Shown: positions 1 to 51,420, numbered from the stretch's first letter. The stretch: DNA of 64,000 nt from Mugil cephalus (GCF_022458985.1 NC_061776.1:8386591-8450590), one strand, 5' to 3'. The notes: a model not told the origin generated them from the sequence alone. Made by a program: numbers and translations.

Positions 1-800
1 GTCTTTTGTAAACGTCAAATAATCTGCACGTTGATTTGTGAAACCAACGTACGAAACCTTACATAAAGGTCAAGTGATTTTTTATCAGTGTTAAAGTTTC
101 AGTGTGTGGTGTAAGGAAAGTATTCCTGGCACCTGTTCAGTCAGGATCTAACTTTTATAAGTTCCTGCTTCCTTCTTATCGGTTATTTCATGTCATGGCA
201 GTGACAATCCAAACGACAAGTGCCTCCACCTCCAGGTCAACATCACCATGAGTTTCAACAGAGCTCATGTTTATTATGACTCACATGGAAAGTTTTTAAG
301 CCCTAAACGCTCAGCATTCCTCTATTGTTTTCTGTCAGGTGGCTCTGTGAGTTGGTAAAATCATTGTATCGCATGATCTCATTGGTCATTTATGTCATAC
401 ACTCATTCAAACTCATTTTAGCGCCTGAACCTGGATTTTTTTTTTTTTTTTTCATTTACCTTCCAGTCATTAGTTCCCTTTCCAGTGCTCCAGCCATTTT
501 TCTTTTCAAACCAACAGCACTGTTCGCTAATAGCCATGAATTGAAGGGATCAAATTACTGAACATTATGGGATTTTTGAAATTATTGATCGGACAAATCT
601 GAAAATTATCGTACGTCTGGTAAAGCTGGTTTGTATCTTTCATGCTGCTAACTGGAAACATGTGATCTCACCATGTTATTTTGTCAGGCTTTGACATTCA
701 TTTATGTTCAGGACTACTGCAGGAGCACATCCAGTATCTTTTACAACTTTACCAGGGTGAAATGTACTTATTTTTACTTGTCCCTGTGCCATTCTTACAG

Positions 801-857
801 ACCAACGAGAAAAAAACTAAGCGCCATAATCCATTTATGTCTCGTACTGCAGTCAAG
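801..857 (+). CDS. Gene A basic micro-exon, 19 codons TNEKKTKRHNPFMSRTAVK
   Basis: Acceptor cttacag|acc and donor aag|gtaaag. Length is a multiple of 3. KRHNPFM motif recurs at 1150. Confidence 0.5.
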
Positions 858-952
858 GTAAAGGTTGGCCTACTGTTGTATTGTTTCATACAGATTTAAC
901 TGCTAAGCCAAGGCTCAAGACATTAATTAATTCCACTGTGATGTTTTATCAG

Positions 953-1039
953 GATGCGTCTGATGATGAAGGGCTGAAAGAAGAGTCTTCGTCCAAAGAT
1001 GAAAACAAAGAAGAGGAGGGAAAAACCAAAACAGAGGAG
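953..1039 (+). CDS. Gene A acidic micro-exon DASDDEGLKEESSSKDENKEEEGKTKTEE (3' end uncertain)
   Basis: Acceptor ttatcag|gat. In-frame acidic peptide. The only nearby donor is a weak gag|gtctct. Confidence 0.4.
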
Positions 1040-1149
1040 GTCTCTTTTTTTTTTTTAATTTCCTCTATTTATCTGTAATTAATACATAAGGAAAATTCAG
1101 CATTCGACCTTTTCACTGTAACACTGATATTCTGCTTTTTTCTTTTTAG

Positions 1150-1200
1150 ACAAAAGTCAAGAAACCCAAGAGACACAATCCCTTCATGCCTCGGGTCAAG
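1150..1200 (+). CDS. Gene A basic micro-exon, 17 codons TKVKKPKRHNPFMPRVK
   Basis: Acceptor tttttag|aca and donor aag|gtaaca. Paralogous to the exon at 801. Confidence 0.55.
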
Positions 1201-1707
1201 GTAACATTCAGACATGTGACATGCACAGACTTGTTCTTGCTTTTAACAAGCCCTCCACTCGTTTCAGATAGTCTCTGCTTGTTATCCTGTGCTAAAGCGT
1301 TAAAAGAATCCAGATCAGTAGACTGACTTGAAGGCCACAAAGACGAACAGAACTTTTATTTCATTTATTTATCGACATTTTCTCATCAGTGTTGTTATAC
1401 GATATCATTTCTGGCTTGTAGCTGTAAAAAAACAACACAAACTATCACAGAATGTGTCATGTGATGTCACATGAGCCACCGTGCTGTAGTTGGTTTGTTT
1501 ATGAAAAGCTGTGCGTAAGCTGAGCACCATTATACCGTAACACAAAATTCTGCAGCTAATGCATCATTAGTATCGGCTGAAACACTCTCAAGAGAAGGTT
1601 TTGTAGAATGTACTGTGGTTTTTCTCTTTTTAATTGATTTAAGAGCAGCTCCTCAGCCTCATTTCACTCTACTCTGCCACTAGTTTTCCCTTCGGGGATG
1701 AATAAAG

Positions 1708-1730
1708 TAATCTATCTATCTATCTATCTA
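1708..1730. repeat. (CTAT)n microsatellite
   Basis: Direct read. Confidence 0.9.
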
Positions 1731-2740
1731 GTTCCATTTCCCAAATAAAAATACAAGCGTTAGTTCTTAAATTTCGATTAAGTACAATTTCTCTTTGTAC
1801 GTGTTTCCATTGAAAAGTGTTGTGTGAATGAGTTGTAACTCTCATAAACTCTTACGTTATCCCATAATTATCTTAATTTCTCGTCTGGTCACATGACGCC
1901 CTGCTTCATCTCTGGTGATGGGGATTGCGAAAAAAGTGTTTCCATTGCATCAATACGTCTGGAAAAAAAACACCCCTCGAGAGCAGAAAACTGTTTTAGC
2001 TTTAGATATTTGAGAGGTTTTTCAAAATGTAGTTGTTTTTATTACCATTTTTATTACTATATTTAGGTTTTGCACATTTCTAGAGGGAATGGAAACACAG
2101 CAACTGATGCTGATGAACTGACCTGAAGCATGCAGGTGTTTGAGCGTAAACCAGAACCAGACTCTACAACCAGAGTTGGATTCTGCACAGATTAGTTTTG
2201 GAAATGTGCAAAACATTGTAACAGGGAATATGAAGTCACTTGTACAGCTCCAGAGCTACTTCAGAGCTCCTTGTTGTTAATTCTCTGACCTCTATTGGAT
2301 TTAGATTCAGACTCATAGAACAAAGTGGCGGAGACTCGTGTCTGACGCATTACTTCAGAATTTCCCCACAAGTCAATGAGATGGGTTGAGCTCGCGTGAC
2401 CGTAAAGATCATAGCATGTGATCTTCATACTCACCTGTCTTTTTTTTTTTTTTTTTAATCCGCGCCGCTGACTGAAAACATGTGATCTCGCCATGTTATT
2501 TTGGCTGGGTTAGTGAGTTTGCATAACTGAAATTCTACCGTCATGATCACGTCACCAACCAGTTACACAGCTGCAGAACACAAAACCTGAAGGAGAAGAA
2601 ACTTTCGCTTGAATTATTTTGGTTGATTAGTGACTTTTTTCCTAACAAATTCTGAATTTGTCTAATAAAATTAAAAGCTGTCTTACAGCCTTTATATTGA
2701 TGCCGTGTTTTAATGGTGTGTTTGTGTTCTTTGATTTCAG

Positions 2741-2776
2741 CCCAAAGTTGTTCAGATGCAAGATGATGAAGCAGAG
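2741..2776 (+). CDS. Gene A acidic micro-exon, 12 codons PKVVQMQDDEAE
   Basis: Acceptor gatttcag|ccc and donor gag|gtaaag. Phase 0/0. Confidence 0.45.
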
Positions 2777-3389
2777 GTAAAGAAAATAAAATGTTCACGG
2801 TTGTTTGTGTATTTGCCCACCAGAGACGTGATCTTACTCATTGTGTTTCTGGATTATAAAAGGCCTGTTATAGTCACCTATCCCCTCCTTTCCTCCACCC
2901 AGAAAACACCCTCTGTCCTCCAGTCATTTATAGACTGTGTCTCTAGGGTGTTCCCTCAGCTCCCAGCAGACTCCTCTAGTCAACGCGGTTTGTTTTTTTC
3001 TTCTCTTCAGCTGTTGACATGCGTCCCACCCCCACCTTGACACGGAGTTTGCATGTCCGTAGCATTGGAAGATGAGACTGAGATTAGGCTGCAATGTGCC
3101 CAGACTTGTTTCTCTGCTTCCCTTTTTTTTTTCCAACAAGGCCATGGAAGATTCTGTGTCTTTTTACTTCTGCAAAAAACAGCAGAAATATGGACGCACG
3201 CCCAGACTCCCTTTTACCATCACTTCCTTTTATCTGAGCTTTGAACAATGAAACTGAGGAAATGTGACACATGATAAGTTGTCTCAGCTGTCTCTTCAGC
3301 TACACTACACACCCAGCCTACATGAGAATAACATGAATGTTAATAGTGACACAGTAATATTAAGCTTTATTTACTTTGTGTTGTCTCAG

Positions 3390-3467
3390 AATGAAGGAGC
3401 AAACAGGTCTCTGTTTGACAAGCTGGATGATTTTCGTCTCGAGCCCTCTCAGCCTGAAGACAGTCAG
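3390..3467 (+). CDS. Gene A exon, 26 codons NEGANRSLFDKLDDFRLEPSQPEDSQ
   Basis: Acceptor tctcag|aat and donor cag|gttagt. Phase 0/0. Confidence 0.55.
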
Positions 3468-3567
3468 GTTAGTGACTTTTTTATTTTTTTTTAATTTATT
3501 TAAAACAGCCTGCGTCTTCCTAGTTTCAGTAGCCACCATTAACATGTCATGTAACGGTGTCTTTCAG

Positions 3568-3607
3568 GATGTGGAGAATCTCATGGACTGGTGGAACACA
3601 GTGGAGC
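3568..3607 (+). CDS. Gene A linker exon DVENLMDWWNTVE (ends in phase 1)
   Basis: Acceptor ctttcag|gat and donor c|gtaagt. Homologous to the gene B exon at 40004 (ESDELMDWWNTVKGW). Confidence 0.65.
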
Positions 3608-3952
3608 GTAAGTTTTAGACGAAATGTTTGTCACTTTTGAGAACTCATCAGATCAGGACACCCCTATTTTGGTTTTAGACATCAGTGCCAATGACACACC
3701 ACACAAAGCCAGACAAATTATTAAACTATCTGACAAGTTTGGGTTGGAAGGACCTGACTATTCTGCACAGAGCCCATTAAACACCTATGAACCTATGAAT
3801 GAATAAGCTGAAAACTACAAAACGAACCTTGTGAATGTCGGCTGAGTGGGGAAAATGCCCACTGCTAGGTTGTCTTGATGACCACATACTTTTAGTCCTA
3901 TGATGCATGTAACACAATGAATAATCATTGTTTATTACTTTTACTTTGTCAG

Positions 3953-4004
3953 AATGGGAAGACGTATCTCAAGATGATGACATGACAGAAAAAGAAGAGG
4001 CCAA
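3953..4004 (+). CDS. Gene A acidic exon (Q)WEDVSQDDDMTEKEEAK (phase 1 in, phase 2 out)
   Basis: Acceptor tttgtcag|aa and donor ccaa|gtaagt. Phases join 3568-3607 to the 4952 exon cleanly. Confidence 0.6.
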
Positions 4005-4951
4005 GTAAGTAAACTTTCTTTTTGCTCAGGTTTTTAAATCTCTGCATCTTAAAGGTCCACTATCTAGACTCCAGTAGAGTCAGAACAGTGAATTCATTAT
4101 TAAAACTGGATAAGATTTTACAATCCCATGTGCCAAGATCCCAGGCAAAACACATTTAGGAGCCCAGTCCAACTGAAAGCCGACCAGCAGGCTAGCAATG
4201 AGCTACCAGCTAGCAACCAACTAGAAGACACCAGCTAACTAGCCTAGCCAACGGCAGTAGGCAGTATGCCGCACATCATTGGTGTTTTCTAGTGAATAAT
4301 AACATTTAGAAAAGGAGATGTATTTTAACTTATTCTATAAAATAAGTTGGCTAAAATATGTGCATATATGTGATTTATTTTTATTTTTAGAATGCAGCAT
4401 CAGCATCTGGATCTCAGTTTTTCCACAATCCATCCCAACCTACTTCTAATTAGCTAGGGATGTTAGTTTAATAAGAGGAAAGCTGCGTTACTCTCATTCC
4501 ATTGGCAGGCAAAATTAATTGACTGCCTGCATCAATTTTTTTTTTCTAAATGTTAGACCGGAGATCCGGCACGGTGCTGGATACTTTAAGCCATGTGTCA
4601 ATATCGTGAGCAGCATATGATATTTCAAAATTTGGGGTCAATAAAACCACCATTATCTGCTCCAAAAGGCATTAAAGAAAGGAAACTGGACTTGTAGAAC
4701 GTCTTGAAGGCGTTTTGCCACTCATCCGCGTAGCTTCTTCAGTTCTAAGGGGCAAGTTGAGGTTTAAAAAAAAACACTGTGGGGGAAAAACCCATCAGAA
4801 ACATGCTTGACATGTTTCTGTAATAACCAGAAACTGCCGTCACCATTATCTGTGTCCTTTACTAGTGGTAAATGAGATGAATGGCCTTTTAAGATGGAGT
4901 GATCTATCATCTCAGACTTTGCTGTGTACTCTAAATTCCTCTTTTTTTCAG

Positions 4952-5909
4952 GGCATTCGCTTTGACTGCAGAAAAAGTTCAGAAGGGCATCCGTGTCTTC
5001 AACAAACTGTTCTCAGAGCGCGCTGAGAGCCTCTGGCAGCACGTCATCGACCTCAACAGCATCGCAGACGGCCTGGACAAGTTCAACAAGAAGACAAAGA
5101 TCGCTCAAATCACCGGCGGCTCCACCAGCGCCATCGGAGGCGTCGCCACGATCGCCGGCTTCGCCCTGGCCCCTGTCACCATGGGAACCTCCTTGATCGT
5201 GACGGCGGTGGGATTGGGCGTCGCCGCGGCAGGTGGTCTGACGTCGGCAGGTGCCGGTATCTCCAACCAGGTCAACAACTCCATGGACCGCAAGAAGGTG
5301 GAGAAGATCGTGGAGGACTACCAGGAGAAGATACTGGACCTCAACAAGTGCCTGAAGTTCATCAAGCAGGGTATCGAGAACCTGCGCAAGTTCGACCTCA
5401 TCAAGATGAAAAAACATGCATACAACCAGGACTTCCCTGTGCTCAGTACCAGCTTCTATGAAGACGGTGCCATGGCAGGAAAGGCGATCCTCATCAACGC
5501 CAACGAGATCATGCGCGTGGTGCAGATTGCTAACGTGGCAGGCAGCACGGCGGCCAGAGCGGTCCAGATCGCCAGTATGGCCACCGGCGTGCTCACCGGA
5601 CTCTTCGTAGGGATGGACATCTACTTTGTGGCCAAAGACTCCAAAGAACTCAAGAAAGGGGCAAAGTCGGAGTTTGCTTCTAAAATCAGGGAGGTGGCCA
5701 CGCAGCTGCACGACGGTCTGGTGGAGCTGAACTCGATCCGGGAGGAGCTGCAGTCCACCCAACCAGAAAACAGGAAGAGCAGCGAATCAGAAGCCGTGGA
5801 CACTGAGAAGAACGTGAAAGATGACAAGTACGAGAGTTCGGATGAAGATGAAATCGATCGCATTAAAAAGGCCATCAAACAGGACATTGAGAACCGGGAA
5901 TATGTTTGA
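4952..5909 (+). CDS. Gene A terminal exon: complete ApoL domain in one exon, stop TGA 5907-5909
   Basis: Acceptor tttttttcag|g. The 315-aa ORF has a Gly/Ala-rich hairpin (LAPVTMGTSLIVTAVGLGVAAAGG) and the ApoL signature LFVGMDIYFVAKDSKELKKGAKSEFASKIREVA. GC3-rich. Confidence 0.9.
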
Positions 5910-7699
5910 CACATGACATCCCGCTTATTATTAAGTTTTGTTTGTTTGTGCTTTTTAAAATAAGGATAGATTGAAACATTCAGATGAATGTGTTTTTGAG
6001 TGTATGGAAGTGTATGGAAACTGAAATATCATCTTAAAATTTCATCAACATTTACAGTACTCCGGTAGGAAGTAAGGCATTGTATCATAACTGCTTCTTG
6101 GGTATCTGTGCCACTTGGTGAAAGGTTTCGAGAAAATGGGATTCAGATTTAATAATATTTTTCAATAGCAACAATTAAATGGGAGCAGTAGCATTAGTCA
6201 GTTTTAATATGTTGTTTGTCAGGATTAAAACTATTTCCTGACGTCCTGTACTTGAGGGAAATGAACGCGACATTTTAAAGTTAGGGTGATCAGATATGTA
6301 AAGATTGTGACTTATAAAAAATTGACCTAAATACTTTCTTTTAGTTTGTAGCTTGTTTCAAATTTGTGATTCTCTAGAGTTAGGGCTGCCCAAATCCACT
6401 GTCTAAACAGGAAGTCCCAATCCTTTGTAAATGCAGTGTAGTTTAGGTTTAGGGTGAGTAGGAAATATCTGGTTAAACTAAACTAAACAATGTTATATCG
6501 GTATGTAGTTCTACTGTTTTAGACTCTTTTGTAGCATATTGTGTTAATTGCCAGTTAACATAATGTTTTCTAAACTAACTCTAAAACTTCTCAGTCTGAA
6601 CTGTCTAAGCCGGTCACATGTTAGCAAGCTAACGTTAGCTCTGTTGGCTGGTTCCACTAGCTAAGCTACTGTTTAATCAAGTTACTGACTGTAAATATAA
6701 TTGTAGCAACTAATATAGATATGATGAATGGTTTTTGTGGAGCCACATGGATTAAACCAGTTATGTGTTTACTATTAATATGAACAGCTGTGCAGTCCAG
6801 GCTGCATGTGAGGAAGACACAATTTGCCAAATGTTTTTTTTTTTTTCTACAGAGTTAGCCGTTTGGTTTTCATTAACATTTCCTCTCTGATGAGGTGTTT
6901 TAATGGTTTTCGTGGTGTAAAACAGTCCATTGTTTGATAACTGGAATGACAGGGTGGTGAAAAACCAATCTGATTCCTGGGAAAAACCGTTGCCGATTTC
7001 ATTTGAGAATCAAAGGTTCGATAGTGTCAACGCTATAGTCTCTTTAGGGACAGTCATATTTATTTTCCTTTTTTGTCGTGGGTGAAGTTGATCATTCAAC
7101 AGTACCATTCCTGTGCAATATATTTTCACTGTGTAATAAATGTAAATATTAAATTAAAGGCCTGAGAAACATTTTCTGTCAATGTTTTGTTTCTTTATAC
7201 AAGTGGACAAACACTTAATTTCCTTCTACCCACAACACGAGCCACCGTACAGTTGGTTAGTTGCTATTTACCCAGTGAATACCAAGATAAGCTTGTTTAA
7301 AGTGTCCCGCTCTGTTTGCTTCTCTTAAGAGATTTCCATGACAAATGTAGGTAAGTTTTAGACTAACTGTACTGTAGGTGAGGTTTTCTAGCTGCATGTG
7401 TCCTACTGTTTAAGGAAGAATCTTGAAATAAAACACAAATTCATAAATAAAGTAAGCATAGTAATCTTTAATTTAACCTGCATGTTGGTGGTGACACTGA
7501 TTTATGTGTATATATATATATATGGTGTAATTCAAGACCAGTTAATTTAAGCATGACATTTTTAACACGCATTTGCTAATAATCACATAGCAACCAAGCT
7601 AGGACATTACAATATGTTTTACTATTATTTCCATGCAAACTGTTAAATTTGTCGTGCTAGCTAGTTATTAGCTAGTGAGTCTCCAAGCCCAGTATCCGC

Positions 7700-9559: not shown

Positions 9560-10135
9560 ACGTTTGGTGAAATCAAATTGAATAAAAACAACAGTACTCA
9601 GGGATATGTTCAATAGTGAATGAAAGAGAATTTCCACACGTTCAATGTGAAGGGAACTCAGGGACTGAACAGCTGTGTAGCCTTAAGAAAATCACTAATC
9701 AGTGAGGCTAACTGGGAAAAAGGGCTTCAATTTGCTAGGGAGCATAAAGATTGGACTCCGGAGCGACGGAAGAAGGTCATGTGGTCTGATGTTGGCCTGT
9801 TTCAAAGTGATGTGCAGTGCAACGATTTTGGGTTTCTGCAGTTTTTTAAGTCCAGGTTCAGCAACATTATCCCAAAGAATGAGGTCAAATGACTGAATAT
9901 ACTGAATGACCAGCAATGGAAAGAGAGGTTCAGGGAGCGTGAGACACTACAGAGTCCAGACCTTAATCCCACCGAGGATCTTTGGGATGTGCTGGAGAAG
10001 GTTTCGCACAATGGTCAGACACACCCATCGTCAACACAAGACCTTAGTGAAAAATGAATGCAACGCTGGATGGAGAAGCTTCTTACTGAAACAGTGCCGC
10101 ATTGAATTCATGCTGTAATCAAAGCTAAAGGCCGT
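9560..10135 (+). mobile_element. Tc1/mariner-like transposase fragment (degenerate)
   Basis: ORF 9620-9892 reads ..LQFAREHKDWTPERRKKVMWSD.. Downstream is ..QSPDLNPTEDLWDVLEK.. Both are Tc1 DDE-transposase motifs and are frameshifted. Confidence 0.7.
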
Positions 10136-12000: not shown

Positions 12001-12090
12001 TATAGAATAGAATAGAATAGAATAGAATAGAATAGAATAGAATAGAATAGAATAGAATAGAAAAGAATAGAATAGAAGTCATTATACAAT
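12001..12090. repeat. (GAATA)n microsatellite, about 17 units
   Basis: Direct read. Confidence 0.95.
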
Positions 12091-17725: not shown

Positions 17726-17806
17726 GCTAATGGAAAAATAAAGCAGCAGGAGACGAGAGAGAAACCATCAGAAACTCCTGTTGTTCCGCCCAGACCAACA
17801 GAGAAG
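17726..17806 (+). CDS. Gene B exon ANGKIKQQETREKPSETPVVPPRPTEK
   Basis: Acceptor ttattag|gct and donor aag|gtgcag. 81 nt. Confidence 0.5.
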
Positions 17807-21830: not shown

Positions 21831-22205
21831 TAAAACTGAACATGGCTGTGCAAAGACAGAATTGCAAATAATGAAGTGGAGTACTTGCTAATTAAGTTAA
21901 AGTTTCATACTATTCTACTAATAGAATTTGCCATGTTGTCATATTGTACTATTGTACTGTAATAAATGGTAAATGTTGGGCTGGAACCTGCATTTTTATT
22001 GTTACAGTAAGAACCCTGAAGCCGTGAAAAACAGAAGTTACAATAATAATAACATACATTTGCATTAAGGAAGTTTATATTTATCCACCCTCTTGTAGAC
22101 TGAGTGTAAAAAAAGACTAAATAAATTAACTTGAAGACGCGTTTAGAACAAATACAAACTTTTTTTTCGTTTTTGTCTTTTTTTGTCTTCCATGTTGGTT
22201 CACAG

Positions 22206-30004: not shown

Positions 30005-30105
30005 GTGAGTCGTCTTCATGGGTCATCGTGAACTTTACTCAAGTATTTAATTCTTCCGCCCTCGTAGAGAAAACCTTCCTGTTCTCTCTGATCGTCTCTT
30101 TTCAG

Positions 30106-31124: not shown

Positions 31125-31184
31125 GATGTTTCACCAGAGACTGAGCTCTCAGTCAGCAGTGAGAACTTATCTGAGAACAAACAG
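31125..31184 (+). CDS. Gene B acidic module DVSPETELSVSSENLSENKQ
   Basis: Acceptor ttccag|gat and donor cag|gtccgt. 60 nt. Confidence 0.65.
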
Positions 31185-31189
31185 GTCCG

Positions 31190-31900
31190 TGACCTTCCTC
31201 CTCCTCCTCCTCCTCCTCCTCCTCCTCCTCCTCCCCTTTCTCTTCCTCTTTCTCTTCCTCCTCCTTCACCTTCTTCTTTTGTTCCTCCTCCTCCTCCTCC
31301 TCCTCCTCCTCCTTCACCTTATTCTTTTGTTCCTCCTCCTCCTCCTCCCCTTCTTCTTCCTTCTTTCAACTTTTCATCGTCCTCTTTTTCCCCTATTGTC
31401 CTCCTTCCCCATCTCCTCATCCGCTTTTCTCTCTTCCTCCTCCAGCTTCTTCTCCTCCTTTGTCTACTCTTCCTTGTTCTTTCCCTCTTCCTCTCCTTCT
31501 TCTTCTTCCTCCTTTCTCATTTTAATTCTCTTCTTCCGTTTCATCTTCCTCATTCCACTCCTCCTTCCCCATCTTCTTCTCCTCCTCCTTCTCCTCCTCC
31601 TTTTCTCATCTTCATCTTCATTCTTCCTCCCGTTCATCTTCCTCCTCCTCCTTCTCATCTCCCTCATCCCCTTTCCCTCTTCCTCCTCCTTCGTCTACTC
31701 CTCCTCCCCTTTCTCCTCCTCCTTTTCATCTTCCTCTTTCTCCTAATATCTTTCTTCTTCTCCTCCTTCGTCTGCTCTTCTTTGTTCCTCCTCCCCTTCC
31801 TGTTCCTCCTTCTACAGTTCTCCTTCTTCCTTATTTCTCCTTTCCATCTTCCTCCTTCTCCTCTTATTCTTCCTTTTCTTCCTCAGCCCAGACGGGACCG
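31190..31900. repeat. About 700-bp pyrimidine (CT/CCT/CTT)n low-complexity tract in the gene B intron
   Basis: Continuous tcctcctcct / cttcttcc runs. Produces spurious ORFs on both strands. Confidence 0.95.
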
Positions 31901-37510: not shown

Positions 37511-37564
37511 GAGAAAAAAGTCGGCTTTGCGGGAATGTTCAGACGGACGCCCAAACCTGTGGAG
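37511..37564 (+). CDS. Gene B basic module EKKVGFAGMFRRTPKPVE
   Basis: Acceptor ttccaacag|gag and donor gag|gtacga. 54 nt. Confidence 0.7.
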
Positions 37565-50559: not shown

Positions 50560-51420
50560 TCCAAGTTTATGGACAGACTGGTTGTAGATGATTAAAAGGC
50601 TACAGTAACTCAAATAACCACTGGGTACAACCAAGGAATGTAGAATACCATCTCTGAACGCACAACACGTCCAACTTTGAAGAAGAGCAGAACACCACAC
50701 TGGGGGCCACTCCTGTCAGCTAAGAACAGAAAACTGAGACTACAGTTCACACAGACTCACCAACACTGGACAATAGAATATTGGCAAAACGTTGCCTGGT
50801 CTGATGAGTCTCGATTTCAGCTGCTACATTCAGATGACAGGGTCAGAATGTGGAGTAAACAACATGAAATCATGGATCCATCCTGCCTTGTATCAACGGT
50901 TCAGGCTGGTTGTGCTGGTGTGATGGTGTGGGGGATATTTTCTTGGGACACTTTGGGTCCCTTACTACAAACTGAGCATGGTTTAAATGCCACAGCCTCC
51001 CTGAGTATTGTTGCTGACCATGTCCATCCCTTTATGACCACAGTGGACCATCTTCTGATGGCTACTTCCAGCAGGATAATGCACCATGTCACAAAGCTCA
51101 TATCATCTCAAATTGGTTTCTGGAACATGACAATGAGTTCACTGTACTCCAATGGCCTCCACAGTCACCAGATCTCAGTCCAATAGATAAAGCACCTTTG
51201 GGATGTGGTGGAACGGGAGATTCACATCATAGATGCAGCCGACAAATCTTCAGGAACTGTGTGATGCTATCATGTAAATATGAACCAACATCTCTGAGGA
51301 ATGTTTCCAATTCCTTGTTGAAAGTATGACATGAAGAATTAAGGCAGTTCTGAGGACAAAAGGGGGTCCAACCTTTTACTAGCAAAGTGTACCCAATAAA
51401 GTGGCCGGTGAGTGTACATT
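50560..51420 (+). mobile_element. Tc1-like transposon, 5'-truncated and frameshifted, with 3' TIR
   Basis: ORF 50677-51186 has WSDESRFQL and VMVWGIFSW, then a frameshifted DNAPCH and a frameshifted LQWPPQSPDLSPIDK. The 3' end is the rc of TACACTCACCGGCCACTTTATTGGGTACAC (51385-51420). Confidence 0.75.

Follow-up and report, generated by a model that had tools for sequence, protein, structure and literature searches.

The 3' part of a teleost apol1 gene in Mugil cephalus, with an NPF-bearing micro-exon tail, an uninterrupted ApoL exon and apold1a as its tandem neighbour

The window analysed here is a stretch of 64,000 nucleotides (nt) from the genome of Mugil cephalus, to which all coordinates refer. 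It contains two genes with an apolipoprotein L (ApoL) domain on the + strand, here called gene A and gene B. The best explanation for gene A (801-5909), and a very likely one, is that it represents the 3' part, comprising eight exons and 452 codons, of teleost apol1, located 5' of its old sister gene, apold1a (gene B), with both genes on one strand. Gene A was read from the region 1-6600, in which exon boundaries and reading frame were tested, and contains the following exons.

801-857 (+), micro-exon with the basic NPF module TNEKKTKRHNPFMSRTAVK; 57 nt, phase 0-0, charge +5, AG acceptor and GT donor.
953-1039 (+), micro-exon with the acidic module DASDDEGLKEESSSKDENKEEEGKTKTEE; 87 nt, phase 0-0, charge -8.
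1150-1200 (+), micro-exon with the basic NPF module TKVKKPKRHNPFMPRVK; 51 nt, phase 0-0, charge +7.
2741-2776 (+), micro-exon PKVVQMQDDEAE; 36 nt, phase 0-0, placed by splice sites and frame.
3390-3467 (+), acidic pre-linker micro-exon NEGANRSLFDKLDDFRLEPSQPEDSQ; 78 nt, phase 0-0.
3568-3607 (+), linker exon DVENLMDWWNTVE; 40 nt, ending in phase 1, with the length and phase of gene B 40004-40043.
3953-4004 (+), linker exon (Q)WEDVSQDDDMTEKEEAK; 52 nt, with the length and phase of gene B 40125-40176.
4952-5909 (+), terminal exon with the entire ApoL domain and an acidic tail; 958 nt, stop codon TGA at 5907-5909.

The exons have AG acceptors and GT donors throughout, and the introns are all of the GT..AG type. 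Joined in order (57, 87, 51, 36, 78, 40, 52 and 958 nt, stop included), they give a coding sequence of 1359 nt, or 452 codons, which is open to the TGA at 5907-5909. The lengths of exons 1-5 are divisible by three, so that these exons are phase 0-0, and the net charge alternates along the exons (+5, -8, +7, -3, -4, -4, -7). An earlier sequence-only reading of this DNA had named these features, each of which was found at, or 1-9 nt from, the coordinates that it gave. Its proposal that the micro-exons, acidic spacers, linker and ApoL domain belong to one gene is borne out by the canonical splice sites and the open coding sequence.

The spliced product of gene A was searched against 5.8 billion proteins; the counts of orthologs given below refer to the best 120 matches, many of which are isoforms of one gene. 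The best matches were to Lates japonicus (82% identity, 99% coverage, E = 3e-242) and Seriola dumerili (84% identity, 98% coverage), followed by matches to Cyprinodon, Epinephelus, Limanda, cichlids and salmonids. Annotated teleost apol1 proteins among the best matches were 82-84% identical to the gene A product over 98-100% of the query. Identities in the best 120 matches ranged from 70 to 86%, and the named ones were mostly apol1, 'Apolipoprotein L, 1' or uncharacterised LOC models. The last exon matches the Pfam family ApoL (PF05461) with E = 4.4e-37 and 128.6 bits (cut-off 25.9) over profile positions 44-297 of 298, and the homology searches thus place the open reading frame (ORF) at 4952-5909 firmly in the ApoL family and not in a different one. 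Because of the E-values of the teleost apol1 matches (3e-242) and of the Pfam match (4.4e-37), the model of gene A is far beyond what chance would produce.

In a neighbor-joining (NJ) tree, gene A nests inside the apol1 clade, together with apol1 from Limanda and Seriola. The exon layout of gene A, which consists of phase-0 NPF and acidic micro-exons, linker exons of 40 and 52 nt and one terminal ApoL exon, is that of Limanda apol1; the micro-exons follow the same order, and the last exon, with the ApoL domain, measures 958 nt in both. The exon at 801-857 is homologous to the TKVKKHKHHNPFMPRAAAK exon of apol1 in Seriola and Limanda, and the Limanda counterpart of the acidic exon at 953-1039 is 96 nt long. 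The exon at 1150-1200 is the best-conserved module of the N-terminal tail; the Limanda peptide TKVKKPKRHNPFMPRVK is identical and its exon again measures 51 nt. The exon at 2741-2776 matches GKVIQRH..DEAE of the apol1 orthologues, and high-scoring segment pairs (HSPs) from tblastn for the exon at 3390-3467 show 61-68% identity to apol1 from Seriola, Xyrichtys and Cyprinodon and 48% to that from Channa. The terminal exon ends in the conserved C-terminus ..EDEIDRIKKAIKQDIENREYV. The sequence-only reading had made its model depend on a transcript that joins the modules to the ApoL exon. Such a transcript was found in a related fish, where the Logan RNA contig SRR14563198 (1936 nt) contains an uninterrupted ORF of 533 amino acids that extends from NPF and acidic modules across the WW linker into ApoL and whose product is 82% identical to gene A. 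Judged by these comparisons, gene A is orthologous to annotated teleost apol1 and its exon layout is conserved in another percomorph. The apol1 gene itself is already known and annotated in dozens of fish genomes, and gene A, as a readily recognised orthologue, is of little consequence for genome annotation.

No further exon of gene A was found in the region 1-800 by tblastn or by three-frame reading. As had been suggested from the sequence, gene A very probably extends 5' of the window, as indicated by orthologues with up to ~350 extra N-terminal residues. Full-length apol1 orthologues reach 790 amino acids, and the window is estimated to contain some 60% of the gene A coding sequence, counted from the 3' end. 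Many apol1 models in databases seem to be truncated, often with a start at the methionine inside NPF-M. Several from teleosts (P0011, P0027, P0046, P0055, P0065 and P0066) start with MPRV.. or MPRG.., at this methionine, and look like incomplete gene predictions rather than genuine short isoforms. In Limanda limanda (L002, 7765-8905), unannotated micro-exons of the types FGGIFKKSPKP and ELSGSNDNLSE are located 1-2 kb 5' of the annotated apol1 ATG (10001), and the deposited Limanda apol1 model is probably incomplete at its 5' end, where further exons or an alternative promoter would be missing. A 48-nt direct repeat with 85% identity between its copies occurs on the + strand at 644-691, just 5' of the exon at 801, and at 2464-2511 in the intron 1201-2740. 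It contains the sequence ..AACATGTGATCTC[A/G]CCATGTTATTTT.., and a poly-T stretch of ~17 nt is present 5' of each copy, immediately adjoining in one case (2440-2456) and ~190 nt away in the other (436-452). It probably represents part of a dispersed repeat.

The two NPF tripeptides of gene A are encoded at 828-836 and 1177-1185, and on the + strand of the window basic NPF modules are only present in gene A (n=2). The sequence-only reading had described gene A as having swapped its module chemistry relative to gene B. While this is true of the window, where only gene A contains basic NPF modules, it does not hold for the apol1 orthologues, many of which contain both types. At least one NPF is present in 112 of the best 120 apol1 orthologues, with up to five per orthologue, and modules of the FxGMFKK type are located further N-terminal in 67 of the 120 apol1-type proteins, for example in isoform X4 of Xyrichtys. 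PxxPxR is found in 90 of the 120, in the form ETPVVPPRPTEEEM. The apol1 locus of Limanda contains FGGIFKKSPKP and ELSGSNDNLSE modules 5' of the NPF exons. NPF modules of the form KLNPFRFSSQ and QKVNPFRSASQ are present in apold1b of Onychostoma (the one apold1b examined) and in a B-clade protein of Albula, and paddlefish has an NRRNPFMKTE micro-exon upstream of the linker exon, which abuts the linker directly in isoform X2 (P0262). The long apold1a proteins of Anabas and Solea (two examined) contain no NPF. Comparison of the apol1 orthologues, apold1b, the B-clade Albula protein and paddlefish indicates that both the NPF and the FSGMFKK-type modules are part of the shared ancestral gene, and that the window cuts gene A before the exons of the FSGMFKK type would appear.

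Across the listed apol1 orthologues, the NPF module encoded at 1150-1200 has the consensus VKKPK[KR]HNPFMPRVK. Three classes of NPF modules can be distinguished, KLNPFRSANK, KILKNPFTSS and KRHNPFMPRV, in which N, P and F are the sole residues in common. The two KRHNPFM cores in the window are identical in peptide sequence, and their codons differ at four of seven positions. A recent tandem duplication of the NPF exons was rejected, since at the DNA level nothing longer than 10-nt words is common to the two exons and the sequences that flank them. Because different codons encode the same KRHNPFM and the flanks are dissimilar, the pattern of substitutions argues that the two NPF exons stem from an old duplication and that selection on the peptide has maintained them. 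Species differ in how many NPF/acidic module pairs they have, with two in gene A, one in Channa and, in Cyprinodon, three NPF-bearing modules and a degenerate fourth, KKHKHHLFIPQ. The N-terminal part of gene A as a whole is of alternating charge and low complexity. Two further WW-linker ApoL proteins, from Arapaima gigas (P0266, 1073 amino acids) and Albula goreensis (P0263, 508 amino acids), are 44-47% identical to apol1 and seem to belong to a more divergent WW-linker ApoL group. The Arapaima protein contains ~20 tandem ..KPDIFQ.. / NPF / DPF modules, an array of [DN]-x-F motifs like that of an endocytic adaptor, in place of which the Albula protein has three near-identical repeats of 56 amino acids.

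According to hydropathy, the ApoL exon of gene A contains a hydrophobic hairpin rich in Gly, Ala, Ser and Thr (..GGSTSAIGGVATIAGFALAPVTMGTSLIVTAVGLGVAAAGGLTSAGAGIS) at residues ~189-238 of the 452-residue model, and a second hydrophobic helix at residues 334-362. The hairpin contains no acidic residues, and G55, G62, G69, P74, T76, G78, S80, G87 and G94 of the ApoL exon are invariant across the aligned fish and amniote homologues. In descriptions of APOL proteins, the hairpin is flexible, crosses the membrane and has amphipathic helices on its flanks. For versions free of acidic residues, such as those of APOL3 and APOLD1, insertion at neutral pH has been proposed, together with a part in membrane fusion, fission or trafficking and not as a secreted pore (PMC11726835). 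Sequence and profile searches of PDB with the ApoL exon matched no APOL structure. Marginal matches were obtained to MakE (6w08_A) and 'Nhe L1' (6tao_A), with E = 0.1 for the single sequence and 0.013-0.014 for the profile. They cover the membrane-inserting hydrophobic hairpins of MakE, a component of a Vibrio alpha-pore-forming toxin, and of the Nhe L1 chain, and the aligned segments are ItGLaLaPvTlGtSlivtAVGlG and TIFGVVLAPFTLGGSLILAGFGV. This likeness could reflect compositional convergence or a distant link to the ClyA family of toxins, and is a lead and not evidence.

The NPF motif is the classical ligand of EH domains, and PxxPxR has the form of a class II SH3 ligand. We propose that Apol1 could be a membrane protein facing the cytoplasm, with an ApoL domain that would insert its Gly/Ala-rich hairpin and a disordered N-terminal tail that would act as a string of short linear motifs, consisting of KKPKRHNPFM modules, PxxPxR further 5' and acidic spacers. 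These motifs may recruit or tether the hairpin domain to the endocytic or trafficking machinery, through scaffolds with EH or SH3 domains, and KKPKRHNPFMPRVK and AMTKLNPFRSANK are candidate EH-domain ligand peptides. Modules on phase-0 tail exons might be skipped or duplicated with the frame left intact, which fits both the up to ten isoforms predicted per species and the varying number of modules. In its widest form, the proposal is that fish 'Apol1' belongs to an actinopterygian ApoL lineage (gar, paddlefish, apol1 and apold1a/b) with a WW linker and cassettes of docking motifs (NPF, PxxPxR and [DN]xF), in which splicing would tune the recruitment of a membrane-remodelling hairpin to Eps15- or intersectin-like scaffolds, and that it is not the counterpart of human APOL1. 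We regard this as possible, though on balance doubtful. If true, what the zebrafish 'apol1 nephropathy model' reveals would be a role in endocytosis or trafficking in podocytes and not the biology of APOL1, and most of the Apol1 protein would have escaped published work, which is based on the short gene model. The conservation of the NPF core raises the testable possibility that fish ApoL proteins connect to endocytic scaffolds with EH domains. In the literature searched, no link of apolipoprotein L to NPF or EH domains and no mention of apold1a or apold1b was found, and the architecture of the tail appears to be undescribed there.

Several points weigh against this interpretation. The start codon and the 5' end of gene A fall beyond the window, and the transcript support comes from a relative and not from this species. 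The tree of ApoL cores is a midpoint-rooted NJ tree without mammalian APOL1-6, and the AlphaFold2 model of the ApoL exon, built from an alignment of 39 sequences, is all-helical and unusable (mean predicted local distance difference test score, pLDDT, 40.4; predicted template modelling score, pTM, 0.31). The cytoplasmic location of the tail is assumed from zebrafish apol1, which is reportedly without a signal peptide or secretory domain (PMC4492502), and readers of NPF are not EH domains alone, POLE2 being another (PMC12808100). The basic context KKPKRH-NPF-MPR also resembles a monopartite nuclear localisation signal (NLS) or a polybasic lipid-binding patch. KKPKRHNPFM could accordingly be an NLS, or a polybasic patch that binds acidic phospholipids, rather than an EH ligand, with an NPF core that is conserved for another reason. 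The monopartite NLS follows the pattern K-K/R-x-K/R, which KKPKR fits, and the modules have charges of +5 and +7. EHD-type EH domains favour acidic residues after NPF, a place taken here by M-P-R, and POLE2, which reads NPF motifs, is a nuclear protein (PMC12808100). However, NPF alone is common to three module classes with wholly different flanks, so the shared constraint is on the core and not on the charge; an ApoL protein of Arapaima has long [DN]-[PI]-F arrays without basic flanks; and a membrane-integral hairpin protein is an unlikely cargo for nuclear import. We consider it unlikely that the module serves as an NLS or polybasic patch instead of an EH ligand.

Gene A had also been described as a paralogue of gene B in tandem, and the two do lie on the same strand, with gene A upstream, and share the WW linker, the 40-nt and 52-nt exons and their phases. 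The features of gene B used in this comparison are as follows.

40004-40176 (+), gene B linker exons, at 40004-40043 (40 nt, ESDELMDWWNTVK) and 40125-40176 (52 nt).
40261-43599 (+), gene B ApoL exons, at 40261-40675 and 42061-43599, followed by a long Glu/Lys/Arg-rich tail.

The C-terminal half of gene B, encoded by four exons, matches 'apolipoprotein L domain containing 1a' (apold1a, si:rp71-1g18.13), and a second group of matches consists of apold1b / si:cabz01007802.1. Genes A and B are 39% identical over 355 amino acids including the linker (E = 4e-90), without gaps across the ApoL core. An identity of ~45% had been forecast; the value over the linker and ApoL together is lower than this, and the mean identity between the two clades in the ApoL core is 47%. 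In the same core, the mean identity to APOLD1 is 28% for the A clade and 25% for the B clade, and in the NJ tree the teleost apol1 and apold1a/b clades are sisters, with amniote APOLD1 outside. In Limanda, exons of the apold1a type begin ~5.4 kb downstream of the apol1 stop codon on the same strand, and TEP1 is located upstream of apol1, on the side that falls beyond the 5' end in the window. An A-like and a B-like gene of Albula goreensis are neighbours by locus tag (AGOR_G00187640 and AGOR_G00187630), and in Anabas an A-type and a B-type gene are located on one contig. Because the tandem order recurs in Limanda, in Albula (adjacent tags) and in Anabas (one contig), gene order across these genomes indicates that the apol1-apold1a tandem is old and conserved and not a recent duplicate.

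The sequence-only reading had noted that the ApoL domain of gene A lies in one exon while that of gene B is interrupted by an intron of ~1.38 kb after ECLEFVQ, and it had offered intron loss, intron gain or a retro-derived exon as explanations. Both observations were confirmed, the terminal exon being 958 nt long in gene A as well as in Limanda and the intron in gene B measuring 1385 nt (40676-42060, phase 0, after ..ECLEFVQ). An intron after EC[LM][ED]F[VLM]Q, in phase 0, is located at the identical codon boundary in four B-type genes.

Gene B of the window, 1385 nt at the ECLEFVQ site.
Misgurnus apold1a, 123 nt at the ECLEFVQ site.
Onychostoma apold1b, 2855 nt at the ECLEFVQ site.
Albula B-type gene, 475 nt at the ECLEFVQ site.

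This intron is absent from apol1 of the window and of Limanda, and from all outgroups examined (gar, paddlefish and APOLD1 of emu and lemur). A single exon of 855 nt encodes amino acids 128-412 in spotted gar, and one of 828 nt encodes amino acids 142-417 in paddlefish. Both genes retain the WW and GWDxW linker micro-exons, and their proteins are nearly equidistant to the two teleost genes (51-53% to A and 50% to B). The entire coding sequence of emu APOLD1 is uninterrupted, amino acids 34-281 of lemur APOLD1 are encoded by a single exon, and the APOL genes of mammals have a 'large homologous exon 7' in common (PMC8557400). Within this sample, the distribution of the intron shows that the uninterrupted ApoL exon is ancestral and was kept by gene A, and that the ECLEFVQ intron is a novelty of teleost apold1a/b. 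Of the explanations offered, gain is thus the one that stood, the intron being present in B-type genes only, while loss and retro-derivation fell, since there is no intron in the outgroups. The simplest history places a single gain in the stem lineage of teleost apold1a/b, later than the duplication that produced A and B but earlier than the split of the elopomorphs.

It could be argued that gene A has instead lost an ancestral ApoL intron, recombination with reverse-transcribed mRNA being one conceivable route, or that its ApoL exon is retro-derived, as gene A is intronless where gene B has an intron and its homologous site, AAGCAG/GGT (the slash marks the site), resembles a spliced junction. 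However, CAG/G is just as likely to be found at a proto-splice site into which no intron was ever inserted. The intron is absent in gar, paddlefish, emu and lemur APOLD1 and mammalian APOL genes (PMC8557400), so there is no ancestral intron to lose and a loss would need several independent events. Furthermore, the introns that flank the 40-nt and 52-nt linker exons are kept, which would not be so for a retro-copied segment; they are retained at the same positions in gene A, gene B, gar and paddlefish, and a retro-derived ApoL exon was excluded on these grounds. Loss or retro-derivation is therefore highly improbable. With a gain as the origin of the intron, the apol1/apold1a pair provides a clean case of intron gain that can be dated, since every teleost apold1a/b gene sampled has the intron, while the sister gene and the outgroups are without it. 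Amniote APOLD1 is without ~50 residues after ..CLEF that are present in both fish genes, at the site of the intron in teleost apold1a/b.

That gene A is a decaying or non-functional duplicate, with a clean exon model due to coincidental conservation, is scarcely credible: its 5' end is outside the window, but this reading was rejected because gene A has an open frame of 452 codons with eight canonical splice pairs, exon sizes that agree with Limanda, an ApoL exon that is 85-91% identical to orthologues of other percomorph orders (tblastn HSPs) and 78-91% identical to 14 aligned apol1 orthologues, and only synonymous differences between its two NPF cores, a sign of purifying selection.

In gene B, a micro-exon array of ~21 kb is located 5' of the linker (17747-38846, + strand). 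It contains basic exons of the type QEKGG[IVMA]FSG[MI]FKK[ST]PKP, for example at 22200, 23898, 24218, 25620, 27699 and 29667, with more exons of the QEKGG..FSG..FKK type at 30103, 31930, 33147, 34410, 36126 and 36423 and a divergent FAGMFRRTPKP at 37526, and these alternate with exons of the type ELSGSSENLTE. The array further includes a PPRPTE exon at 17747-17803 and VSFRVKKTLPK at 38654-38731, and long gene B orthologues comprise 1233-1627 amino acids. A low-complexity tract rich in TCC/CTC at 31126-31863 (+) gives a spurious ORF of 206 amino acids made up of Leu, Ser and Phe; it overlaps a candidate gene B micro-exon at 31143-31187, which has a weak tblastn match, and is probably intronic. 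ORF fragments at 9620-9892 (+) and 50677-51186 (+) resemble the helix-turn-helix domain of Tc3-type transposases (PF01498), with E = 1.5e-5 and 7.4e-5, below the curated cut-off, and look like decayed remnants of Tc1/mariner-type elements, one between genes A and B and one 3' of gene B. A tandem repeat 3' of gene B (46498-46811) has a period of ~134 nt, 2.4 copies, 87% matches and a sub-period of ~67-70 nt, and an (ATAGA)15 microsatellite is located at 12002-12077. A Rfam scan of the entire window gave no matches.

Compared with apol1 of zebrafish (NP_001025309) and other teleosts, gene A has the same order of micro-exons and the WW linker, and there is no architectural difference, although the number of modules varies. 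Knock-down or F0 CRISPR of zebrafish apol1 leads to pericardial oedema and defects in glomerular filtration (PMC4492502, PMC4854397). The locus in these papers measures 2.6 kb and their protein model is short; the long N-terminal tail is not discussed in them (PMC4492502, PMC4854397), and the motif-bearing tail has so far been left out of readings of the zebrafish 'APOL1' kidney phenotypes. The teleost apold1a/b genes share the order of micro-exon tail, WW linker and ApoL with apol1, but they alone carry the intron at the ECLEFVQ site. In the long forms of apold1a (two examined), FSGMFKK/ELSxSxxxLSE modules are far more numerous and the Glu/Lys/Arg tail is very long.

Similar to gene A, amniote APOLD1 (VERGE) has its ApoL hairpin (..LSPVTLGTSLL.SAVGLGVATAGG..) in one exon and without acidic residues. 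It differs from the fish genes in that it is only 25-28% identical to them and contains neither the WW linker nor the micro-exon tail. Human APOL1 belongs to the Pfam ApoL family, like gene A, and is mostly encoded by one large terminal exon; it arose within the primates, is restricted to humans and a few others of them, and encodes a trypanolytic protein with a signal peptide (PMC8557400). For this comparison, Anderson et al. reported 38% identity (PMC4492502). Unlike human APOL1, fish apol1 has the linker and tail design that is common to apold1a/b and to the gar and paddlefish genes. Because this design is shared among the fish genes, the name 'apol1' reflects a best BLAST hit and not one-to-one orthology, and gene A is not demonstrated to be a one-to-one orthologue of primate APOL1. 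In an older gar gene model (P0526, Lepisosteus oculatus, 691 amino acids), a WW-linker ApoL is fused to an upstream ApoL-like segment (..FVVQKVRQGMKRFHREFGEQAPKLRAHVASLN..), which is apparently without a hydrophobic hairpin and may represent a second, tandem ApoL-related gene.

The disordered tails of epsin, Dab2, Numb and synaptojanin-170 resemble those of the apol1 orthologues in that they contain multiple NPF motifs spaced tens of residues apart; PxxPxR is present in the orthologues as well. The likeness of these multi-NPF adaptors to gene A is one of motif grammar and not of homology, as their tails are attached to ENTH or PTB domains, while that of gene A is attached to a membrane-inserting ApoL domain.

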